A stretch of DNA of 64,000 bases from a virus (IMGVR_UViG_3300045988_163643:1-64000); one strand, 5' to 3'. Counted from the first letter of the stretch, positions 2,228 to 61,718 are shown. The notes: generated from the sequence alone by a model not told the origin. Numbers and translations: made by a program.

Positions 2228-2256
2228 ATCCTTTCTCTATCTCTCATGGATAGAAT
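2228..2256 (-). promoter_or_regulatory. leader hairpin before the permease gene with weak PyrR-binding-loop resemblance
   Basis: UCUAUC-CAUGAGA-GAUAGA followed by GAAAGGAU, against the recalled ARUCCAGAGAGGYU. Confidence 0.2.
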
Positions 2257-2302
2257 TAAAATTATTTTATTATTAATCTAAAATATACCATTTACCACTA
2301 AC

Positions 2303-2659
2303 TTATTCCTCCTCATTTTCTTCATTTTCCATTTCTTTAATTCTTCTTTCAAACATACATAAGATTTCTTCTATTCTATCTTCTTCATATTGTTTATAGA
2401 CTTCATCTTTTACATTTTCTAATAATTTTCTTATTTGTCTTATGCCTGTTAATAAAGTAAATACTTCACCTGTTACTGGATTAATTAAAGTACCAAAATG
2501 ATAATAGTCTAAAATAAAACCATGAATTTCATTTATTTGTTCGTATATTTCAAAATTATCTTTTATGTGATATCTTTCTATTTCTTCTTTATATTTCTCC
2601 CAATCATTCCCTATCTGATTAAGCATTTCTTTAATTTTTTTATTATTATCATCTTTCAT
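2303..2659 (-). CDS. hypothetical acidic protein
   Basis: 118-aa ORF, start 1 nt after the stop of the upstream gene. Confidence 0.6.
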   Translation of the reverse strand: MKDDNNKKIKEMLNQIGNDWEKYKEEIERYHIKDNFEIYEQINEIHGFILDYYHFGTLINPVTGEVFTLLTGIRQIRKLLENVKDEVYKQYEEDRIEEILCMFERRIKEMENEENEEE

Positions 2660-2660
2660 G

Positions 2661-4076
2661 TTATTTTCCCTCCTTTAAAATATCTTCGGCACAAGCAATT
2701 CCCATACTACACGCAGTTGTTAAACCACGTCCCATTCCACTACAATCACCTATAAAATATACATTTTTATTTGAACTCTTACCATATTTATCAATTAGCA
2801 CTTTATTAGAACATAGCTTTACTTCTAATCCATATAATAATGTTTTATCACCATTAATTCCTGGTACTATCTTATCTAATTCTTCGATAAATTCAAGTAT
2901 ACTTTGTAATGTTCTATATGGCATAGCACTTGTCAAATCTCCTGCATATGCTTTAGCAGTTGGTGTTACATCTAATTCTTTTAATCTTTCATCTGTACTT
3001 CTTCTTTTAAGTTTTATATCTTTTAAAGATTGTATTATAACAGAACCATTACCTAAAGAATTAACTGCTAAAGTTAAAGGATACACATAATTACTTAATG
3101 GGTCTTCCATATCTTCATTAAAATGTCTGCTAACTAGTATTGCAAAATTTGTATTATCAGATTTTTTATTTCTAAAACTATGACCATTAGCACAAAATAA
3201 TTTTTTATCACCATATGGATAACTTTCTATTGTAACAAATCCACCTGGGTTAACACAAAAAGTTCTACAACTATCACCAAAAGAACTAGTAAAATATGTT
3301 TTAAGTTCATAGAAATTTTTATTCAACTTATCCATTATATCATTAGTTGTTTCTACTCTAACACCAATTTGAACTTCACCATTTTTATATTCAATACTAT
3401 TATTATCACATATAGTTTTTACTAATTTATTACCACTTCTACCCATAGCAACAATTATTTTATCACAACTTAAGTGTTTAATATTTCGACCTTCTTTATA
3501 CCATATTTCATTAGATACATCATCTGCTATTATATCGATAACTTCACAATTAGGTATAATATTAACATTGTTATCTTTTAAAAAATCTAGCATTCTTTTA
3601 TATATAATTCTCGAATTTTCGCTTCCAAGATGAATAGTGATACATTCTCCTATATCTAATCTAGGATTATCTTTAATTATATCCATTATTTCTTTTGCTT
3701 CTTCAGTATGTTCTTTTCCATATGCTTTAGATTTAAATTCCTCTATTCCAAATTGTTGATATATTTCATAAGTCTTTTTAAGATATTTAGTTATTTCTTC
3801 TTCGGTCATTAATTCAGCCATATCCCCTCCTACTCTACCAGTAGTATCAAAGTTAAGTTTACTATCTGAAAAAGAACCAGCTCCACCACAACCATGTGTT
3901 ATAGAACATACCTTACATTTCTTACAAGATGTATCAGCAGTTACAAAACATTTTCTTTTTTCTATTGTCTTACCTTTTTCTAACATTGTTATATTAGCAC
4001 CATTGAATCCATTGTTAATTAATTCTATTGCCGTAAATATCCCTGATGCACCAGTTCCAATAATTCCTATATTCAA
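2661..4076 (-). CDS. FAD-dependent oxidoreductase (COG2509-like, function unknown)
   Basis: N-terminal GIIGTGASGIFTAIEL dinucleotide fold; CKKCKVC...GCGGAGSFSDSKL block; C-terminal FIGDCSGMGRG. Confidence 0.7.
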   Translation of the reverse strand: MNIGIIGTGASGIFTAIELINNGFNGANITMLEKGKTIEKRKCFVTADTSCKKCKVCSITHGCGGAGSFSDSKLNFDTTGRVGGDMAELMTEEEITKYLKKTYEIYQQFGIEEFKSKAYGKEHTEEAKEIMDIIKDNPRLDIGECITIHLGSENSRIIYKRMLDFLKDNNVNIIPNCEVIDIIADDVSNEIWYKEGRNIKHLSCDKIIVAMGRSGNKLVKTICDNNSIEYKNGEVQIGVRVETTNDIMDKLNKNFYELKTYFTSSFGDSCRTFCVNPGGFVTIESYPYGDKKLFCANGHSFRNKKSDNTNFAILVSRHFNEDMEDPLSNYVYPLTLAVNSLGNGSVIIQSLKDIKLKRRSTDERLKELDVTPTAKAYAGDLTSAMPYRTLQSILEFIEELDKIVPGINGDKTLLYGLEVKLCSNKVLIDKYGKSSNKNVYFIGDCSGMGRGLTTACSMGIACAEDILKEGK

Positions 4077-20297: not shown

Positions 20298-23200
20298 TTA
20301 TTTATTTGCTTTTCTATATTCATATTCTTCTCTATTTAGTTCTTCTATTTCTTCTTCATTAAGTAAATGGTATTCATCACACCATATTTCAAACTCTCCA
20401 TTTTGTACCCATTTTGTTTTAATTATTGTATTTCCATCTTTATCTATTGTTTCAACTTCTTTTTTTTCTTTTTTTGCTTTTTGGAACATATGATATACAT
20501 TAATTACACTAAATGCTTTAAACGGTTGTGCTTCATAAATTCCTTCACCAACTTTTATTTCTATAGTTTTTCCAGTACTTATATTAAAAATCCATGCTTT
20601 TTTATTTTTAAATTTAGTTATAACATCAATAACGATACAAGTTGATGAATCATAATCTTCAAAATAATAGTTGCATTCTCCTGTCATTTCAAGATTAATT
20701 TTAACTTTGTCTATTGATGACATTTCATTATCTTCTATATTCAACATTAATTCATTACATAATTCTAATGCTTTTTCTACTTTATATTGTTTATATTTAT
20801 CTTCTTTACTCTTTTCAGTTGCATATTTTTCTATTATTTCTTTAGGATATGGTAAATCAGCTTTATTAAATGACACTTCACCTTTCTTAGATTTTAATTT
20901 TTTACTCATTATTTTTTCATATAAATCTATAATATCTAATAGTTTTTGAGATTTACCAAATTCATCGAAGAAATCTATTGCTATCAATATATTAAGTTGT
21001 CTTGAATTTATAGATGTTTTATCATTTAAATCAATAAGTAAATCCATAAAACTATTATATTTATTATCTTTTAACATATATAATTCTTGTGATACTTGTT
21101 CGTTCATATATTTTATACTAGCCATACCTTTATATATAGAATTGCTTTCTTTATCCATAAAATATTCAGCTTTAGAATATCTAAATTTAGGAGGTAATAA
21201 TTTTATATCAAAATAACTTAATTCTTTTATTAGTCTATTTGTTCTAGTTGAATCATCGGAATAAATAGATAGAGCAACTGTATAATATTCAAGAGGATAA
21301 TGCGATTTTAAAAATGCTCCATACAGACTATCATAGGCATAAGAAAGTGAATGTGAAGCATTGAATGAATATTTTGAAGCATCATTAACTACTTGCCATG
21401 TTTCTTCAAATCCATCAATTGAACCAACTTTATCTATCCAACCTTTTTTTAATTTTTTTTCTAACTCTATTAATTCTTTTTCTTTAAATTTTTTCTTTGA
21501 TATTTTTTTTATAATTCCATATGTTTCAGGTTCAGGAATACCTAACCATATTAAATATTTCATAATAGATTCTTGATACATTAAATAATGATAACTATCT
21601 TCTAATAAATTATCCAATTCTTTTACACCTGTTGTATATGGTTTTCTTTCTATAAAATTATCTAATAAAGAAGCAAATCCTGGTCTAATTGAAGCAACAA
21701 ATGCACTCATTTCGGCTACACTAGAAACTTTATATCTTGATGCTAAATTGGTTGCAAAATCTGAATCAGATTGATTTATTGTACAAGTTATTTTATCTTC
21801 ATATATTTTAAATGTTTTTTCATCTAACATTTTTTCTAATTCTTTAATAGTCGGTATTTTAATATTAGCTAATTCACAAGTTTTTCTTATTAATGTCCAA
21901 ACTGTAACCGCAAGATACGTTAATACCGTTCCTTTCGGAATACTTTAACACCCATTTAAGGGTCGGACTAGACTATACCTTTATCTTCGACATTACTCGT
22001 TAAGATATGCCTATTATAGTCGTTGAAGGTTAATATGTTTATTATTTAATTATTTCATTTATAAAAATTTTATATTTTCTATCCAAATAAATATTTGCAT
22101 CTTTATATAATATATAATAAATTTCTTTTATTTTATTAAAATTTCTAGTTACACAAGTATAAGTATAATCTCCTTCTTTTTTTATTTTTGTATTAAATTT
22201 TAAATAATTTTGTATAAAAATACAAGTTTCTTTTGTACCAGTATAACCAAAATGATATTGAGGATTTTTTAAATAATTATAATGATATACTTTTATACTA
22301 CCATCACCATCGAACATACCTCTCACAAAATGATTTAATAATTCTTTAGGTATAAAAGATAAAACTCTATTAATATCAATTTCATAACTTTTTCTATTTG
22401 TAAAACCAATATTTCTTAAATCATCACAAAGTTGTTTACAACCTATACTTATACTTGGATTTCCATCTTTATTATATTTTATAGGATGAGTACTTTTAAG
22501 GGATTTTTTAAATTTTTCTATTTCATCTAAATCTTTCATACATAACATTACTTTATTTCTTTTAGATATATGTCCATCGGCTAATAATAAACCTAACCAA
22601 TATGCTTTTTCTTCTGTATCAATTGTTGAGAAATAATTTTCATCTACTTCATAAATACCATTATATCTTTTTCTTAATTTTATATCCCATCTTTTAAATT
22701 GTCTTTGTATTGTTGACCCATCACAATTATAAATTTTTCCTATTTGGATAGTACTTAATTTTTCTTTAAAATATAAATTTAATATATTATCTTTTTCTTT
22801 ATCCCAAAATTCAAATCCACCATTACTCTTATGCAATATTTCATCTCCATTTATTTTATTTAATAAACATATTATTTCCCTGCTGATTATCCATTCATTC
22901 ACCCTTAGCACCCTTACAAGGCTTTTATTTCAGCTTAGGTAATCCTTATAATTTTTTCTGCTTTCGCAACCATCAAGCTTAATGTTACCATTTACTTTGT
23001 GGTTTATAAGGCTTTAGGAACTCCCAGCAATTTAAGGCATCATAATCTACATAATTTCTTATATAGACGACTATTAAATTAATCATTCTTTAGATATTTA
23101 TAAACATCACAATTATAGCCATCTAAATTACAACATATTCCTTCTTTAGTTTTTATTAAACCAATTTCTTCTGAAACATTTTTATCATATAGTAACATTG

Positions 23201-26054
23201 AACAAGGTGATTCTGATATACTTTCTACTACTCCTTTAAATACTTTTGAATCTTTTATTATTTTTCCCCAATATTCATCATTTTCATATTGTTCTAAATT
23301 TTTAGCTATTTCATCATATTTACTAACATGCATATCATTTGCCTTACACCATAGTCTAAAAGCAGATGAATCTTGTAAAGGTTTATATGATAAAATCCAA
23401 GCACAATTTTCTTCGCCTAATAAATCTTTAGTTGCTTGTATAAATACTGAACGGTCTTCTGTATTTAAATCTACATCAGGCAATGAACGTGTACCTAATA
23501 TACGTTCTATACTCATAAATCTAGTTGGATACAATGGAACTGGTGCAGATAACCTATCTATTTCTGTTAAACCTAATAATTTATTTATAATAAAACTTAC
23601 AGCCGAATTATGAACTATCATATTATTAAGTAAATAACTATGCTCATTTTCAACTTCTATATCATATACTGTGGTTTTTTGTTTAGGTAATATAATGATT
23701 TCCTTAATAGGAAGATAATAGTAATTATTATCCTCGAAAGTTCTTTCATTTTTTTTCTGTGAATAATTAGAATTTTTATTTAATCTTAATTTATAAGATT
23801 CTTTACATAAATACCCTTCTTTCATTTTATGTTCTTTTCTTACGCTTAAACTATTTACTCCTTCATCCGTCATTAAACATAATAATTTATATGCGTTTAT
23901 TAAAGATTTTGAAGTATTATCGAAATTGATTCTATATTCACAAAAGCTTCCATCTGATAATCTTAATCCTTTTACTATACCTAATAAATTTTCTTTTGAT
24001 TGATTAAACCATTTTTCATTAAATATTTTATCTTTTCCTTTTTTAGATTCAAATAATTCCTGTTTAACAAAATTACAAAATACTGTAGAATTAATATATA
24101 ATTGACTTAATTTTTTAGTTTTACTTACATTTTCATATATAGATTTATTTAATTTAGATGCTATATTATAAAATATTTCTCTATTATATTTATCTTTTTC
24201 AGTAGTATTGTTTATGGCTAATCCAACACTAGTTTTTTTAGAAGTAAATCCGTCGCCATACATCAATCCTATAAATATATTAAATTCTTTATCTATTTCA
24301 ATATATCTTTCTAATTTTGAAAATTGTTTAGATTTAACATATTTAGAATATTCTTCTTGGGTATTAAAAGGTATATAATCCATTAAAGCTTTATATTTAT
24401 CTTTTTTCCTATTAAAACAATTTTTTTTCATATTTGCAAAATTTTCTACTAATGACTTACCAACACCTATTTTTCTTGCAACATCACTAGGAGAATATTT
24501 ATAAATAGTATTAGTTTTTTCATATATATATTTATCATCAAAATCAAATCCGTTGATATTATAATCATTTAAATCAATTATCTTATTTAAACTATCCGTA
24601 ACATTTATTTTAGGTACACATACATAATCTGTTTTCACTATATCTTTTGCTTGTATCCATTTTAATGTATTATTTCTGTTTATAAGTATTTTATGGTCTA
24701 AAGTACATACAGTTGGATAATATTTATCAGTACCATAGATATGTTTAATTTGAACTAATTCTTCTTCTATATCATATTTTGCAGTGTTAATTACCTTATT
24801 AAAATTTCCACTTTCTGTAATTACATAATCACCTATTTTAACATCCTTTATAGATTTTAAAGAATTTTTTGTATGAACTAAAGCATCTTCAGTAAAACAT
24901 CCTCTTCCAGTCTTGGTTAATAAACCATTATATTTATTTATTGCTCTTTGACATATTTTATAATCTAATATAAAATAATCTTCCATATGTGTTTTTTCGA
25001 TTATATTAAATTCATATTTTATAGCATCTAAATACTCATGCCATTTTTCTTTAGGTATCGTATCTCTTATTTCCACCCATCTTTTATTAATTATATCTTT
25101 TAATTCTTTATTTGGATTATCAGATATTGATGGCATTTTAATTTCTTTATCCAATATAATATTTTCACATTCGTCAAAAATTAAAGTATTATTAATTGCG
25201 ACTTTTATTTGTTCTTCACTTAATACATTTTGTTTATTATATCTTTCTATTATAGTTTCTACATTAGGATAATCTAATATAAAATTTGTTTCTTCTTTAT
25301 ATATAATACCTTTTGCTTTAAGAAATAATTCTCTATAAATATAATCTTGTGGATTAATATAATGAGAATCATTACCATGAATGATATTAATATTATATTT
25401 TTCACTTAAACATATAATTTTTCTATTAAGATTTTTCTGTATATCTTCATTATGGTTTTGAACTTCTAAATAAAAATTATCACCAAAATATTCTTTCATT
25501 TTTATAATCCAATCATCTAAGCCTTCATCATTTCTTAAACGACCAGCAACACAAGCAGTTGTTACGATTACATTGTTTGGATTAACACTAAATAATAATT
25601 CATCATCTATTCTATTTTTATAATATACTCCATCTATATTGCTATAGGATAATATTCTATTTAAATCTCTATATCCATCTTTGTTTTTTGCTATTATAAC
25701 TAAGTGATAATTAGAATTATCTTTTTCTTTTCTATCTTTAACATAATATACTTCTGCACCAACTACCATTTTAATACCTTTGTATGATTTATCACAAACA
25801 TCTTTATATTGACATTTTTCACAATTATGTTTAGTATATTCATTATTTTCTTGAGTAAGTTTCACACATACTTCACTACATAGAGTATGTGCTTCATATA
25901 CGTTACCTTGATAACCATGTTCAGTAGTAAAATATATTGCATCTTTACCATCTAATTCAATTGCTCTAACTATATATTCTATTGGTTTAGCGACTACATC
26001 TAAACTTTTAATATTGCTATATATTTTATGTGAATGATAATTATTACATCTCAT
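20298..26054 (-). CDS. dnaE: DNA polymerase III alpha (DnaE-type). Exons 26054-23082 and 21926-20298; exon 1 carries an intein
   Basis: PHP motif YHSHKIYS..D; TGRG|intein|SAVSFIINKLLGLTEID; exon join ...YKYLKND|VLTYLAVTVW... matches the spacing of K.DfLGL..LTvi. About 1102 aa after removing the intein. Confidence 0.8.
21927..23081 (-). mobile_element. group I intron in dnaE carrying a LAGLIDADG endonuclease
   Basis: The 5' exon ends in U (GAU) and the intron ends in G. GC-richer non-coding flanks at 22912-23081 and 21927-22041. Confidence 0.6.
22042..22911 (-). CDS. LAGLIDADG homing endonuclease (intron-encoded)
   Basis: YWLGLLLADGHI and FVRGMFDGDGSI motifs; N-terminal HTH-like segment. Confidence 0.85.
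   Translation of the reverse strand: MLRVNEWIISREIICLLNKINGDEILHKSNGGFEFWDKEKDNILNLYFKEKLSTIQIGKIYNCDGSTIQRQFKRWDIKLRKRYNGIYEVDENYFSTIDTEEKAYWLGLLLADGHISKRNKVMLCMKDLDEIEKFKKSLKSTHPIKYNKDGNPSISIGCKQLCDDLRNIGFTNRKSYEIDINRVLSFIPKELLNHFVRGMFDGDGSIKVYHYNYLKNPQYHFGYTGTKETCIFIQNYLKFNTKIKKEGDYTYTCVTRNFNKIKEIYYILYKDANIYLDRKYKIFINEIIK
23607..24899 (-). mobile_element. intein (431 aa) with LAGLIDADG endonuclease domain, inserted in the GRGS motif of DnaE
   Basis: Starts CFTEDALV, block B TLDHKIL, ends IVHN followed by Ser; internal IGLMYGDGF and VKGLRLSDGSF. Confidence 0.85.
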
Positions 26055-31759: not shown

Positions 31760-33604
31760 TTATTTTTTTATACTCATGTTATAAGTTGTTATAAGTTCTT
31801 CTACTTCATAACCTTCTAATGTTTCTTTTTCCATTAATTCTTCAGCTATTGTTGATATTAATTCTTTATTTTCTTCTACTATTTGCATTGCTTTTCTATA
31901 TGCTTCATCAACTATTTTTTTCATTTCTTCATGTATTTTTTCTTGCATAAATAAATTTCTTTCATCTATTTTCATTTTACCTAATTCACTCATACCATAA
32001 TCACAAACCATACGTTGTGCTATTGCTGAAACACTTCCTAAATCTCCACTACATCCACTACTTTCATGACCGAAGAATACCTTTTCACTTACTGCTCCTC
32101 CAAGAGATACTATCATACTATTTATTAGGTCTTCTTTTGTTCTTATAAATCTATCATCTTCTTCATGATATAAGCAGTAACCTAAAGCATCTGCATGTGG
32201 TATGATTGTACATTTACTTAATTTCTTATTATTTAATATTTCTGACATCATTAAATGTCCAACTTCATGATAAGCAGTTATTTTCTTTTCTCTATCTATC
32301 ATGACTGTAGATTTTCTTTCTAGTCCAGCTATTTGTCTATCTATTGCTCTTAATAACATATTTTGAGTTATTTCATCGGCATCTTCTCTTATTGCTATCA
32401 TTGCACCTTCTGTTAATATAGCTTCCATATCAGCACTAGCCATACCATGTGTTTGACTAGCTATAATTTCTAAATCAACATCTTCTGCTAAAGGTCTACC
32501 AGTAGCATATAATTTTAATATTTCTAATCTTGTTTTTTTATCAGGGTTAGGTATGTATATATGTCTACTTAATCTACCTTGTCTTTTTAAAGCTGGGTCT
32601 AATATATCACTTCTATTTGTTGCACCTATTACTAATATATCCTCATTATCAGGACTTGCTAATTCAACTAATAATTGATTTAATGTGGCATTATGCTCTT
32701 TATTATTTTCTTCTTCTCTTTTTCCACCAACTGCATCAATTTCATCTATAAATATAACGGCAGGTCTATTATTTCTAGCTTTTTTAAATAAATCTCTTAC
32801 TCTTGAAGCACCAACACCAACGTATTTTTCATTAAATTCAGAACCAGCCATTGAATAAAATACTGCATCTGTTTCTCCTGCTATGGCTCTAGCTAATAAA
32901 GATTTACCATTACCTGGTTCACCTTCTAATAACACTCCTCTCGGAGGAGTAACTTTAAATTTCTTAAATTTCTCTTTATCATTAAAACCAGCTATTAGTT
33001 CCATAAGTTCAATTTTAACTTCTTCTAATCCAGCTACATCTTTTAAAGTAGTATTAGATTTTTCACCACCATCGAAATTTTCAGTTTGTTTTTTTATTTT
33101 AGAATTAAATTTAGATGTGTCAAAAGTAAAAAGTCCCATATCTATTTCTTCTTTTTCATCATCGTCATCTGTTTCTTTAGGATTTCTTATTTCATCAAAT
33201 AAATCTTCTATTTTTTTCATACTGCCTTCTATTTCTTTTCTTTCTTTTTCAATTTTTCTTTCTTCATCTTTTATTGATTGTTCTACTTGAAATATTAATA
33301 TATCAACATAACTATCTGCAATATCTTCTGCTACTGATAACGCTTTTTCATTAGGTTCTGCTATTTGAAATAATAATTCCCTAGCTTCAAATTTTGTTTC
33401 TATTGATTCAACATCTTTTATGCTTAAGCTATCTATGTCTACATCATCTTTTAATGTGTCTTTTAGAGTACATGGTGAGCAAACTAAATAATAACCCCTT
33501 ACACTAGGATAAAATAAAGCACTACCATAAGTAAAAATTATATCCATAAAATAACTTTTTTGTTCTTCTCCATTTTTTCTTATTATAACCTTATTCCTTT
33601 TCAT
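31760..33604 (-). CDS. FtsH-like AAA+ Zn metalloprotease with no obvious transmembrane segments
   Basis: Walker A GEPGNGKS, Walker B VIFIDEIDA, SRH ATNRSDILDPALKRQGR, HEVGH; the first ~200 aa are unrelated and hydrophilic. Confidence 0.8.
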   Translation of the reverse strand: MKRNKVIIRKNGEEQKSYFMDIIFTYGSALFYPSVRGYYLVCSPCTLKDTLKDDVDIDSLSIKDVESIETKFEARELLFQIAEPNEKALSVAEDIADSYVDILIFQVEQSIKDEERKIEKERKEIEGSMKKIEDLFDEIRNPKETDDDDEKEEIDMGLFTFDTSKFNSKIKKQTENFDGGEKSNTTLKDVAGLEEVKIELMELIAGFNDKEKFKKFKVTPPRGVLLEGEPGNGKSLLARAIAGETDAVFYSMAGSEFNEKYVGVGASRVRDLFKKARNNRPAVIFIDEIDAVGGKREEENNKEHNATLNQLLVELASPDNEDILVIGATNRSDILDPALKRQGRLSRHIYIPNPDKKTRLEILKLYATGRPLAEDVDLEIIASQTHGMASADMEAILTEGAMIAIREDADEITQNMLLRAIDRQIAGLERKSTVMIDREKKITAYHEVGHLMMSEILNNKKLSKCTIIPHADALGYCLYHEEDDRFIRTKEDLINSMIVSLGGAVSEKVFFGHESSGCSGDLGSVSAIAQRMVCDYGMSELGKMKIDERNLFMQEKIHEEMKKIVDEAYRKAMQIVEENKELISTIAEELMEKETLEGYEVEELITTYNMSIKK

Positions 33605-34383: not shown

Positions 34384-34405
34384 AAATCCCCTACAAGAGG
34401 GGAAT
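34384..34405 (-). terminator. intrinsic terminator hairpin
   Basis: TCCCCT/AGGGGA stem followed by a T-rich tract on the minus strand. Confidence 0.6.
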
Positions 34406-34427
34406 TTACTACCATTTATCTTCTTTT

Positions 34428-34556
34428 TTAATAAATAAATAATAAAAGAAATCCTACCAACAACATTACTACGCCAAGAATCATTTCACCAACCATTAAA
34501 CTTATTATTCCTATAACCATGTTGCATATACCTACAGCAATACGAAACTTATCCAC
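34428..34556 (-). CDS. 42-aa hydrophobic peptide (GTG start)
   Basis: AGGAGG RBS + GTG; paralog of the adjacent peptide; followed by a terminator. Confidence 0.45.
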   Translation of the reverse strand: MDKFRIAVGICNMVIGIISLMVGEMILGVVMLLVGFLLLFIY

Positions 34557-34566
34557 TTTATACCTC

Positions 34567-34683
34567 CTAATTAATAAACAATAAAAGAAATACTGCTAAA
34601 AACATTGTAATAGCTAAACCTATTTTACCACACATTAAATCTATCACTCCTAGAATAACACAAGCCATAATTATTAAAAACAT
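34567..34683 (-). CDS. 38-aa hydrophobic peptide
   Basis: AAGGAGGG RBS; MFLIIMACVILGVIDLMCGKIGLAITMFLAVFLLLFIN. Confidence 0.45.
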   Translation of the reverse strand: MFLIIMACVILGVIDLMCGKIGLAITMFLAVFLLLFIN

Positions 34684-34699: not shown

Positions 34700-35734
34700 T
34701 TATTGATTCTTATATTCTCTTTCAACTAACCACAATAAGCAAGAGTTTGCTAAGTCTAATATAGTATCGTCAATCTTTTTTACTCTTTGTTCAGGTATAT
34801 TTGGGTCACATAATGTTAATAATTTATTATATTCGTCAGTGATTCTTACTAAGAATGACACACAACCAAATTTTTCATAAGTATCAGCAAAACTATTCCC
34901 ATAATCATTATTTTTAGCTTTATATGTTTCTTCTAAATTGTTTAATAAATATTGGTATATACCTAATCTATCCATTTTAGGCGTTGTAGATTCTTTTATC
35001 TCGACAGGTTCTAACATATCTTTATGCCATGAATAATAATTTGTATCCTCAGGGTTAGCTATAGATTTTAAGCTATAATCTCCATCAAAATCTATATCAA
35101 CTATAACATACATTTTTCCTCTATATTCTAACATAGTCTCTAAAACTTCACAACCCCCATATATTTCCCCTTTTTGTAAGCCCTCTCTTACTTTTACAAT
35201 ATCACCTATTTCATATTCCATATTATTTTTCTCCTTTATTTCATGTTTTAAATCATCTTTCATTGTAACAGGTTCTACCATGTCCTTATGCCATACATAA
35301 GTATTATCTTTATCAGATAAATATAAATCACCAACTGTATCTATATAATATATTGTGTCAGTTGTTCCTCTATATTTTAACATACCCTCTACAACATAAC
35401 AATCACCATATTTTTCTCCCTCTTTTAAATTATCTTTTATTCTAACAATATCTCTTATTTTATAGTCCATATTATTTCCCTCCTTTATTCCATCTATATT
35501 AGTAGATTCTTTTAAATCATCTTTTATTACAACAGGTTCTAACATGTCTTCACTCCACACATAAGGATTATTATTATTCGCTAAATGGTAATTTCCATCT
35601 TCATCTATATTTTCTATAATATCAAGTGTTCCTCTAAACTTTAACATGTCATTTATAGAACTACATCCCCCATACATTTTATCTTCTTGTAAATCATCTC
35701 TTACTTTAACTAAATCACCTATTTTATATTTCAT
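34700..35734 (-). CDS. three tandem SH3-like domains fused to a DUF1599/MazG-like all-alpha domain
   Basis: Three copies of IGD.VKVR..L....YGGC....ML.YRG...W..DMLEPV; C-terminal NNDYGNSF...RITDEYNKL...DTILDLANSCLL. Confidence 0.7.
   Translation of the reverse strand: MKYKIGDLVKVRDDLQEDKMYGGCSSINDMLKFRGTLDIIENIDEDGNYHLANNNNPYVWSEDMLEPVVIKDDLKESTNIDGIKEGNNMDYKIRDIVRIKDNLKEGEKYGDCYVVEGMLKYRGTTDTIYYIDTVGDLYLSDKDNTYVWHKDMVEPVTMKDDLKHEIKEKNNMEYEIGDIVKVREGLQKGEIYGGCEVLETMLEYRGKMYVIVDIDFDGDYSLKSIANPEDTNYYSWHKDMLEPVEIKESTTPKMDRLGIYQYLLNNLEETYKAKNNDYGNSFADTYEKFGCVSFLVRITDEYNKLLTLCDPNIPEQRVKKIDDTILDLANSCLLWLVEREYKNQ
35003..35734 (-). repeat. three in-frame tandem repeat units (about 250-264 nt); units 2 and 3 begin with their own SD+ATG (ATG at 35470 and 35221)
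   Basis: AAAGGAGGGAAATAATATG and AAGGAGAAAAATAATATG lie inside the ORF at the repeat boundaries. Confidence 0.8.
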
Positions 35735-35764
35735 ACTAATCTCTCCTTTATCTTATTTACTTAT

Positions 35765-35793
35765 ATTATACTACACTTTTTATAAAAAGTAAA
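35765..35793 (-). promoter_or_regulatory. consensus promoter cassette
   Basis: -35 TTTACT, 17 nt, -10 TATAAT. Confidence 0.6.
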
Positions 35794-35818
35794 GAGATAA
35801 AATAAAATTTATCTCTTT
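35791..35818 (-). terminator. hairpin overlapping the dnaB stop and the next -35
   Basis: AAAGAGATAA/TTATCTCTTT stem. Confidence 0.5.
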
Positions 35819-38169: not shown

Positions 38170-38709
38170 TTATTCATTATTATCCCCCTCTTTATCATCA
38201 TCGTTATAGCTAAACACATCATTGAATCTATCCAAATCTAACAAATTATTTCTTTTTAAGACTTTCAAAACTGAAATCATTCTGCAACTATCATCATTAC
38301 AATTTACATATAAATTATTTATCATACAATCATTACAAGGGTCAAAATCAATTGAATATGTAACTTCATTGAAAAAATTTGCAAGTGCTTTTCGTGAATG
38401 TTCTGTTTCACGTGTACAACGATATTCTTCAACTAATTGCTCTTTAGTTTTTCCACAATCAGCTAATAAATAATTTAACAAATCATCCGTACTATATTCT
38501 ACTAACTCAAGCATTGCAAAAGAATAAGTAAATGGATAATATTTAGAATCAAGTATTCTACAACTTCTATGTTTTTCATCTACTTCTGTAGCAGTAAATA
38601 CCTTATCTTCAAATTGTGTCATACTATCTAAATAAACAATTCCATCATAACTTTCACCTACAACTAAACCATCTTTTAATCTAACTTTATCACCATTTTT
38701 TATTTTCAC
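38170..38709 (-). CDS. SH3-like-domain protein with Cys-rich C-terminal domain
   Basis: N-terminal KNGDKVRLKDGLVVGESYDG...MLELV matches the repeat family. Confidence 0.55.
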   Translation of the reverse strand: MKIKNGDKVRLKDGLVVGESYDGIVYLDSMTQFEDKVFTATEVDEKHRSCRILDSKYYPFTYSFAMLELVEYSTDDLLNYLLADCGKTKEQLVEEYRCTRETEHSRKALANFFNEVTYSIDFDPCNDCMINNLYVNCNDDSCRMISVLKVLKRNNLLDLDRFNDVFSYNDDDKEGDNNE

Positions 38710-43803: not shown

Positions 43804-44244
43804 CTATTTTGAAACTTTATAACCTTTATCTACAACTCTTTCCAATTTTCTACCACATATCGGACAATAGTTTATTTCTACATCTGTCAATCCATCTAAG
43901 TTACTATCAATCTTAAGTCTATTACCGTTTACTATATCTATTGTTCCATTCTTTGTCAACATAAATTTTTTAGTTTCACAAAGAAAACAAGATTCTATTG
44001 GATTTTCCGTTTTATCAATATCTCCATTAGCAATCTTTCCTTCAAACATTTCTCCTGCCCAAGAAAAATCTACATCTTTTAATTTAAAAAAAATATCAGT
44101 TTTATCAATTTTATCAATTTTATCAATAACTTGTATAGTACCCGAATATTTATTCATAAATTTATTAAAACAACAACCACTATAAAAACTATCTATTTCC
44201 AAATCATCTCTTATTTTAACAACATCACCAACACGATAAATCAT
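43804..44244 (-). CDS. SH3-like-domain protein with C-terminal Zn ribbon
   Basis: N-terminal VGDVVKIRDDLEIDSFYSGC matches the repeat family; CFLCE...CPICG. Confidence 0.55.
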   Translation of the reverse strand: MIYRVGDVVKIRDDLEIDSFYSGCCFNKFMNKYSGTIQVIDKIDKIDKTDIFFKLKDVDFSWAGEMFEGKIANGDIDKTENPIESCFLCETKKFMLTKNGTIDIVNGNRLKIDSNLDGLTDVEINYCPICGRKLERVVDKGYKVSK

Positions 44245-61181: not shown

Positions 61182-61718
61182 TTAATACTCTCCTAAATCT
61201 TCTTTTAGATTTTTTATTATTTTCTCAATAGATGCTAATTCTTTTATTTTTTCTTCTCTTTCATTTTTTAATTCATTCATTCTTTTCTTTTTATAACAAA
61301 TTTCTAATCCAATTTTAGGATTGAAAATATCATCTTCATGACATCTAGCAGTGAAGACATTGAAATCTTCAGCTATCGCTATTACTTCAGGATTATTTAC
61401 TATTAACACTTTAATCCCAAAAGATTTTAAAAGACTACAAGAATCATTGGCATCTTGTCTATATATTTCCATTTTATTATTTTTTGTTATAGGCTCTAAC
61501 ATACTCTTGCTAAAGCAATATGGATTATAATAATCATCCGAATCAAGTTTTATTATATATCTAATGCGTTCTTCGTTTCTTGATATCCTTACAATTTCTC
61601 CCACTTTGCCTAAAGTATCCTTCATATCACTTATAAATTTACATCCATCATCGTAAAATGTATCAACTATTAAGTCGTTTTTAACTCTTATTTTATCTCC
61701 AATTTTGAATTTTTCCAT
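61182..61718 (-). CDS. SH3-like-domain protein with distinct C-terminal domain
   Basis: KIGDKIRVKNDLIVDTFYDDGC...SMLEPI matches the repeat family. Confidence 0.55.
   Translation of the reverse strand: MEKFKIGDKIRVKNDLIVDTFYDDGCKFISDMKDTLGKVGEIVRISRNEERIRYIIKLDSDDYYNPYCFSKSMLEPITKNNKMEIYRQDANDSCSLLKSFGIKVLIVNNPEVIAIAEDFNVFTARCHEDDIFNPKIGLEICYKKKRMNELKNEREEKIKELASIEKIIKNLKEDLGEY

Follow-up and report, generated by a model that had tools for sequence, protein, structure and literature searches.

Nested in-frame isoforms are known for T7 gp4A/4B, phiX174 A/A*, lambda C/Nu3 and the cyanobacterial CcmM (M58/M35). In endolysins of Gram-positive phages, the linker between two domains contains an in-frame ribosome-binding site (RBS) and start codon; both products are made, and they assemble 1:3, 2:2 or 1:5 (PMC9430671). 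Internal start sites were found in Escherichia coli by Ribo-RET, with the IF2 isoforms of infB as an example (10.1101/520783). A few bacterial genes, and the endolysins of phages, are thus agreed to have in-frame internal starts, in most cases a single one per gene. Here we analyse a gene of a viral DNA stretch of 64,000 nucleotides (nt; IMGVR_UViG_3300045988_163643:1-64000, the whole of which is called the window) that carries a candidate internal start at each boundary between its repeats. The open reading frame (ORF), 34700..35734 on the minus strand, encodes 344 amino acids (aa): three SH3-like beta-barrels separated by disordered linkers, and then a helical DUF1599-like domain.

The internal start of endolysins is the closest known mechanism. 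Both cases concern phages of hosts that use Shine-Dalgarno (SD) sequences; in both, an in-frame RBS and start lie in the linker between folded domains, the stop codon is shared, and the site is conserved at an equal relative position in homologues. The short endolysin product is the C-terminal module, which assembles with the full-length protein; the counterpart isoforms of the present gene are predicted from its sequence. The present gene differs in having two nested sites (up to three in relatives), at every repeat boundary. These sites derive from the duplicated 5' untranslated region (5'UTR) of the gene itself, the protein is not a lysin, and its N-terminal modules are shuffled cassettes. 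With IF2 and other cases of the Ribo-RET type, the gene shares internal SD-led starts leading to N-terminally truncated proteins, which are predicted here, and the same kind of evidence, namely that the internal start is conserved and that synonymous variation drops locally. It is a further likeness that the internal product of rpnE corresponds to an independent gene, as the isoforms predicted here correspond to shorter members of the family. However, the sites of that type are single or mutually unrelated, whereas those described here are paralogous copies of one RBS, repeated together with the domain that follows. Proteins of cultured phages with PF07659 or SH3_15-like domains (Clostridium, Enterococcus, crAss-like) have single, distant copies of either domain only. 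What is new here is the presence of paralogous copies of a gene's own RBS, one per repeat boundary, with family-wide conservation and in a shuffled cassette array; no precedent was found in the literature on RBS-containing repeat linkers.

Candidate internal start sites at the repeat boundaries

The borders of the three units are aa 1-88, 89-171 and 172-~253. Pairwise identity between the units is 49-52% in protein and 69-74% at the DNA level, and the repeat spacings are 249 and 264 nt; Tandem Repeats Finder called no repeat in the array because the copies are too diverged (~70% identical). In an AlphaFold2 model built from a 60-sequence alignment, the barrels had predicted local distance difference test (pLDDT) values of 83-93 and the intervening segments, aa 71-88 and 158-171, values of 30-38. 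The low-confidence segments (pLDDT < 50) stop exactly at M89 and M172, the internal starts being placed between folded domains.

The in-frame ATG at 35470 is preceded by AAAGGAGGGAAATAAT (also shown as ggaataAAGGAGGgaaataat) and the in-frame ATG at 35221 by AAGGAGAAAAATAAT (also shown as gaaataAAGGAGaaaaataat); with the ATG these read KEGNNM and KEKNNM, respectively. Among the 417 internal in-frame ATG, GTG and TTG codons of 53 window genes, pairing with the anti-SD sequence ranked first at 35470 (-12.2 kcal/mol) and fourth at 35221 (-8.8 kcal/mol). A pairing of -8 kcal/mol was reached by 1.4% of the 417 codons, true starts averaged -8.4 kcal/mol, and the start of the gene itself had -8.8 kcal/mol. 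In both sites the SD core lies 8-9 nt ahead of the ATG, and both fall within the threshold of 10.1101/520783 (-8.5 kcal/mol, <15 nt). Local RNA structure was -2.7 and -3.1 kcal/mol at 35470 and 35221, compared with a gene mean of -5.1 ± 2.8 kcal/mol. The window is 24.9% G+C and makes heavy use of SD sequences, with 68 copies of AAGGAG on the gene strand and 4 on the other strand.

An earlier note on this DNA had described the three units followed by a DUF1599/MazG-like helical domain, the two ATGs behind SD sequences, and a spacing like that of real starts. All of this was recovered, the domain being recognized through relatives that match PF07659. At internal junctions, SD-to-start spacing was 7-10 nt in 20 of the 22 with a recognizable SD core, within the 7-12 nt range of first-unit starts.

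A search of ~5.8 billion proteins yielded 111 relatives, and 29 distinct unit-unit junctions were recovered as DNA. The SD was -8 kcal/mol or stronger in 23 of them, the first codon was start-capable in 26 (ATG 15, GTG 10, TTG 1, the remainder being ATA 2 and GTA 1), and a strong SD was combined with a start-capable codon in 22. In a protein census of 68 internal junctions, the first residue was M in 50, V in 13, I in 3, L in 1 and D in 1; the D junction belongs to the distant relative P0110, which is devoid of such a linker.

Codon choice at these junctions departs from that of the same genes elsewhere, where Lys is encoded by AAG in 17% of cases, Glu by GAG in 21% and Val by GTG in 11.8%. 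AAG GAG was used in 14 of the 15 K-E junctions, versus 3.6% expected from this usage, and Val at the start of a unit was encoded by GTG in 10 of 11 cases. The earlier note had proposed in advance that its reading would fall if the internal SD motifs were not conserved at synonymous positions in relatives; the K-E junctions display this conservation. When the junctions were recoded synonymously with the codon usage of the family, mean pairing was -5.1 kcal/mol compared with ~-9.5 kcal/mol observed, a value that none of 1000 resamples reached (P < 0.001). The peptide itself changes (KEG, KEK, KEE, KGG, KGE, KEV) while a purine-rich G core (GGAG or GGGG) persists; in the KGG form, AAAGGGGGA, anti-SD pairing is kept via G-U wobble. 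The G+C fraction at third codon positions was 0.6-0.88 only at columns -5 and -4 and at the start and Met-30 columns, where Met fixes ATG; it was 0.52 or lower in all others. Paralogous units are near synonymous saturation (codon identity 75%, versus 63% expected at saturation), and at shared K/E columns elsewhere in the units both codons ended in G in 6 of 175 cases. As judged from codon usage, the constraint on the linker SD acts on nucleotides and not on the protein.

The junction between the last unit and the DUF1599 domain provides a comparison within the same genes. In 29 distinct fused genes this junction had no SD (~0 kcal/mol), whereas genes that consist of the C-terminal domain only had a strong SD at that point (-10 to -13 kcal/mol). 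In the window, the first codon of the domain, ATG 34975, lacks an SD, with a junction energy of +0.4 kcal/mol. The codons at this junction were ATG 21, ATA 6, GTG 1 and ACA 1; compared with it, the non-ATG codons of unit-unit junctions, 11 start-capable versus 3 not, differed (Fisher p = 0.006). The SD core was degraded or missing in the three non-start unit-unit junctions, two ATA and one GTA (AAGGGGAAA, AAAGGGAAA, none); nonetheless L004, an ATA junction, had -8.3 kcal/mol.

With a probability of roughly 0.55, we propose that the conserved internal initiation sites give nested isoforms. Purifying selection acting on the nucleotide sequence would maintain the internal RBSs and start codons, and ribosomes would initiate at 35470 and 35221 as well as at the annotated start. 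One mRNA would thereby produce the full three-unit protein together with two-unit and one-unit isoforms, all carrying the C-terminal domain, and these isoforms might co-assemble via that domain, as in two-polypeptide phage endolysins. The predicted one- and two-unit isoforms correspond to architectures that are found as complete genes in relatives. We infer internal initiation, co-assembly and the role of the units as variable binding modules from these comparisons. That ribosomes do initiate to some extent at sites like these, in an mRNA that is AT-rich and weakly structured, seems more likely than the whole of this proposal; the functional importance of the internal starts is less certain.

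If internal initiation takes place, an RBS copied along with its domain and conserved at each repeat boundary would generate a natural multi-step series of nested proteoforms, and a tandem duplication reaching into the 5'UTR would be a route to internal sites in one step. At GTG junctions, an initiating ribosome would insert Met and an elongating ribosome Val, which makes the two modes distinguishable. Gene callers report the long ORF only, or a wrong start (P0015, P0055, P0058); such proteoforms are therefore invisible in current annotations. The gene also offers a handle on the function of DUF1599.

Origin and variability of the repeat array

Repeat family D1 runs to 35757, 23 nt ahead of the true ATG, and covers its SD; the 5'UTR is therefore homologous to the linkers, and the duplicated unit included the RBS. 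It is to the 3' part of linker 1, including AAGGAGG, that the 5'UTR of the gene is homologous. Read in frame, first-unit 5'UTRs of relatives give KGGNN, KEVNS or even HVNIIKGGNN, as in linker tails. An exact 13-mer encoding KEST is common to linker 1 and to the linker between unit 3 and the C-terminal domain, and thus identifies the opposite end of the duplicated segment. The array was built by tandem duplication of a segment starting ~25-30 nt inside the 5'UTR, and each internal linker therefore ends in a translated RBS and a start codon. The units have later been exchanged, permuted, gained and lost via recombination. The earlier note had proposed a tandem duplication that included the RBS. 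The inclusion of the RBS stands, while a single old triplication does not, the array being cassette-shuffled, with 0-4 units in permuted order.

The relatives' loci come from human-gut metagenomes and IMG/VR, on contigs of up to ~200 kb. The 111 relatives have no unit in 8 cases, one in 47, two in 45, three in 10 and four in 1. Clustering at 70% identity of the 130 units of the 63 closest relatives defined 28 unit types. They occur in permuted order (A-C and C-A, D-F and F-D, K-A-C and K-C-A, A-D-B and D-A-B), and types A, C, D, F and J are found first, internal and last. The array of the window is F-D-J. In the relative L096, which is 98% identical at the 3' end of dnaB, 100% in the intergenic region, 94% in the C-terminal domain and 98% downstream, the array is D-F, with units 95-96% identical to the corresponding units of the window; type D, which is unit 2 here, heads this array with 96% nucleotide identity. 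In L097, which is 99% identical at the 3' end of dnaB, 99% in the intergenic region and 94% in the C-terminal domain, the array is J-A, and type J, which is unit 3 here, is the first unit of both L094 and L097, with 90-91% nucleotide identity. The array is a hypervariable spot inside an otherwise conserved replication-gene region and, because arrays differ and are permuted while the flanks are 96-100% identical, this variability is driven by recombination; the earlier note had not noticed it. No signal of gene-wide positive selection was found on the units, the median pairwise omega being 0.42, with values above 1 in 1% of pairs.

Since the array is among the most variable spots amid such conserved flanks, the SH3-like units are candidates for host-interaction or counter-defence specificity. 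A larger picture, which we put forward tentatively and hold to be rather improbable as a whole, is that of a plug-and-play diversity system: SH3-like cassettes and their RBS/start linkers would be shuffled among close gut phages, and a graded mixture of three-, two- and one-unit proteins would co-assemble on a DUF1599 core, forming a combinatorial set of multivalent complexes and so keeping up with a rapidly changing target, of a host or of a rival, in the manner of an arms race between defence and counter-defence.

Blastn of the region against INPHARED phages gave no match; tblastn against cultured phages detected distant single-domain relatives only (Clostridium, Enterococcus, Streptococcus, crAss-like), none with an array; and no relative was found in GTDB genomes. 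The possibility that units exist as separate ORFs, with stops between them, was rejected, as 0 such cases occurred in 105 loci including the window; genes with the C-terminal domain only do exist, and in these 105 loci they have no SH3-like ORF upstream.

Two relatives carry tandem whole-gene paralogues, L100 (1501..2529 and 2688..3515) and L051 (1075..1881 and 2234..2779). In the first paralogue (P0044; P0010 is similar), the conserved KNxDYG motif of the C-terminal domain is replaced by TNNNQDD, a change that may mark a diverged or inactive copy. In L008 (1..1920), a foreign ORF of 155 aa truncates the first unit, and a GC-rich AroA-like ORF lies upstream. L008 may be a chimeric assembly or an insertion; if an insertion, the linker RBS would be the sole start for the remaining gene (P0058). 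We set it aside as a natural case of a linker RBS driving a gene, the contig being possibly chimeric on account of the GC-rich AroA-like gene. In L101, a Tad3-domain gene (PF25185; 2445..3098) lies two genes downstream of the SH3-DUF1599 gene, which hints, from one relative, that the neighbourhood may hold counter-defence genes.

Evidence against internal initiation and alternative explanations

Several observations weigh against nested isoforms. First, the SD was lost in 6 of the 29 junctions (L093 unit 2, L094 unit 3, L100 unit 2, L102 and both L104 junctions), in one L104 junction by a synonymous GAG-to-GAA change, and the start codon was lost in 3 of 29; some lineages can therefore dispense with internal initiation. 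Second, the P values given above are optimistic, because junctions share ancestry. Third, part of the excess of GTG at unit starts is mutational, since ATG-to-GTG is the sole single-step route from Met to Val. Fourth, GTG was found in none of 51 first-unit starts (ATG 45, TTG 3, and 3 others that are artefacts of the hidden Markov model (HMM) register), compared with 10 of the 29 internal ones; internal GTG codons fit either a weaker, tuned initiation or relaxed constraint, of which the latter would speak against our proposal. Fifth, synonymous sites vary unusually little in the first ~9 unit codons as well, which could result from homogenization by recombination. Finally, the oligomerization of the C-terminal domain that co-assembly calls for is inferred from weak fold matches (E 0.2 or worse).

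The most serious alternative, although we judge it improbable, is that the linker SDs and start codons are fossil RBSs, leftovers of the 5'UTR that have no function in place and persist through rapid cassette turnover; there would be little time for decay, and deletion of upstream units could bring any unit to the head of the gene. Such turnover fits with the wholly different arrays (F-D-J, D-F, J-A) of phages whose flanks are 96-100% identical, with the occurrence of identical unit types in first, internal and last positions, with the decay seen in 6-7 of 29 junctions, and with the first-slot 5'UTRs of L095, L099, P0015 and P0055, which in frame spell out an entire linker, HVNIIKGGNN. However, in the lineage of the window the first slot keeps its RBS, gataaaggagagattaRt, no matter which unit leads, and the spacer of this RBS, agattaRt, differs from the spacers of the linker RBSs, ggaaataat and aaaaataat; units therefore do not bring the linker SD to the front. 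Furthermore, types that are never first (B, 16 cases; L, 4 cases) mostly retain an SD and ATG, as does type E, which is first only in the truncated P0058. At equal divergence the remainder of the linker and the other K/E third positions are randomized and the SD is not, and the junction between unit and C-terminal domain has the appearance that an unselected junction takes. Turnover of fossil RBSs explains part of the pattern but is weakened by these observations.

A second alternative, less probable still, is that the SD-like motif is kept for another purpose, either as homology for unit exchange or as a site of anti-SD pausing that aids domain-wise folding. The motif and the first ~9 codons form the most uniform DNA of the repeat, unit exchange clearly occurs near the junction, and the sites are located exactly at domain boundaries. 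However, neither purpose explains the retention of ATG, GTG or TTG at the first codon, or the coupling of start-codon loss with a degraded SD. A 6-nt motif is too short to serve as recombination homology. As for pausing, with a linker of ~18 residues the preceding barrel would probably still be partly in the exit tunnel during an SD pause, and that SD motifs cause ribosome pausing at all is disputed.

Lastly, a protein-level constraint, in which the linker or the beginning of the barrel would require the residues K-E-G-N-N-M, with the SD-like DNA as an incidental by-product, is very improbable and largely refuted by the codon tests: IK(E/G)xNN-M is indeed the best-conserved part of the linker in protein, but its residues vary (E to G; G to K to E to V) around a constant G-rich core, the rare AAG GAG pair is chosen in 14 of 15 cases where recoded versions of the identical peptides seldom yield an equally strong SD, the segment is predicted to be disordered, and the distant P0110 joins two units with neither such a linker nor a Met.

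Domain matches, flanking elements and neighbouring genes

In Foldseek, the barrels matched SH3/KOW/Tudor-like folds, among them the Mind bomb REP domain (4tse, E 1e-6); whole-chain template modelling (TM) scores with 4tse were low because the query holds several domains. With PF18346 (SH3_15, Mind bomb SH3 repeat), the protein scored 19.3 bits, under the 24-bit cut-off, and its relative P0003 scored 38.5 bits. For PF07659 (DUF1599, also named 'Nucleotide modification associated domain 1', NMAD1), neither the full protein nor the isolated C-terminal domain had a match at E <= 0.1; the relatives P0003, P0064 and P0108 scored 25.1-30.5 bits (cut-off 25 bits), and the C-terminal domain is 84-90% identical to relatives that pass this cut-off. 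Here two residues, DE, are missing from the near-invariant VKDEKIDDT motif, and E stands in place of K in ITDKYNR; both changes are shared by P0002, P0004, P0006, P0007 and P0014. The domain was modelled as four helices (pLDDT 75), and Foldseek gave 2p06, 2gta, 4qgp, 1yvw, 2yxh and dCTPases with E 0.2-5 and TM scores of 0.4-0.6. These weak matches of the model suggest a MazG-like domain, that is, an all-alpha nucleoside triphosphate pyrophosphatase fold. A profile of the domain found nothing relevant among PDB sequences. In the literature on DUF1599/NMAD1 we found annotation lists and an unvalidated defence-domain prediction for an unspecified NMAD, and no function.

The coordinates of the gene and of its flanking elements are collected in Table 1. 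The upstream neighbours are a DnaB-like helicase gene, an AT-rich hairpin and the promoter-like site; region-wide, promoter-like sites were no commoner than in shuffled sequence, so that the one at 35765..35793 is weak evidence. The intergenic region upstream of the gene is 99-100% identical in L096 and L097. The hairpin, an 11-bp AT-rich stem (AAAGAGATAAA / TTTATCTCTTT) at 35791..35818 on the minus strand, follows the dnaB stop directly and overlaps the promoter-like -35; it was missed by the terminator scan because it has too few G-C pairs.

Table 1. Features of the SH3-DUF1599 gene and its flanks, in the direction of transcription
Feature	Coordinates	Strand	Evidence
Promoter-like site, TTTACT, 17 nt, TATAAT	35765..35793	-	10/12 matches
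SD AAGGAG of annotated start, ATG 35734..35732	35743..35748	-	-8.8 kcal/mol
SH3-like unit 1, aa 1-70, type F	35525..35734	-	HMM; AlphaFold2 pLDDT 83-93; Foldseek 4tse E 1e-6
Linker 1, aa 71-88, predicted disordered	35471..35524	-	pLDDT 31-38; repeat families D1, D4, D5
SD AAGGAGG within linker 1	35479..35485	-	Anti-SD pairing -12.2 kcal/mol
SH3-like unit 2, aa 89-158, type D; opens with internal ATG 35470..35468	35261..35470	-	AlphaFold2
Linker 2, aa 159-171, predicted disordered	35222..35260	-	pLDDT < 50 segment is aa 158-171
SD AAGGAG within linker 2	35231..35236	-	Anti-SD pairing -8.8 kcal/mol
SH3-like unit 3, aa 172-253, type J, plus short linker KESTTPK; opens with internal ATG 35221..35219	34976..35221	-	
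C-terminal helical DUF1599-like domain, aa 254-344, and stop codon	34700..34975	-	
Two small paralogous hydrophobic-peptide genes, 34683..34567 and 34556..34428	34428..34683	-	Repeat family D4
Terminator-like hairpin followed by T run, end of putative operon	34384..34407	-	3 overlapping calls versus 0.2 expected (shuffles)

The two small hydrophobic-peptide genes are apparently co-transcribed with the SH3-DUF1599 gene, and the first of them has an RBS 16-mer identical to that of linker 1. The peptides are ~38-42 aa long, and 1-3 such small ORFs are present in relatives (L094, L095, L097, L098). They form a second tandem array with variable copy number, in which the copies are separate, each with its own RBS and stop.

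No tRNA genes were found in the 64-kb window. A single SH3-like unit of the same family opens three more window genes, 43804..44244, 61182..61718 and 38170..38709, all on the minus strand, with family HMM E-values of 1e-15, 1e-9 and 3e-6, respectively, and with unrelated C-terminal parts; the last of them also matches phrog_7488. This phage thus seems to reuse the SH3-like unit as an N-terminal module. The replication region further includes a full FtsH-like gene (31760..33604, minus strand) with an AAA+ ATPase and an M41 peptidase (Pfam E 4e-39 and 2e-42), which has a 200-aa N-terminal extension and is without an obvious membrane anchor. In the DNA polymerase ORF (23079..26054, minus strand, 991 aa), the segment of residues ~384-495 gives matches to unrelated PHROGs, both ribonucleotide reductase and families whose function is unknown; from these matches it may be an intein or an inserted domain.

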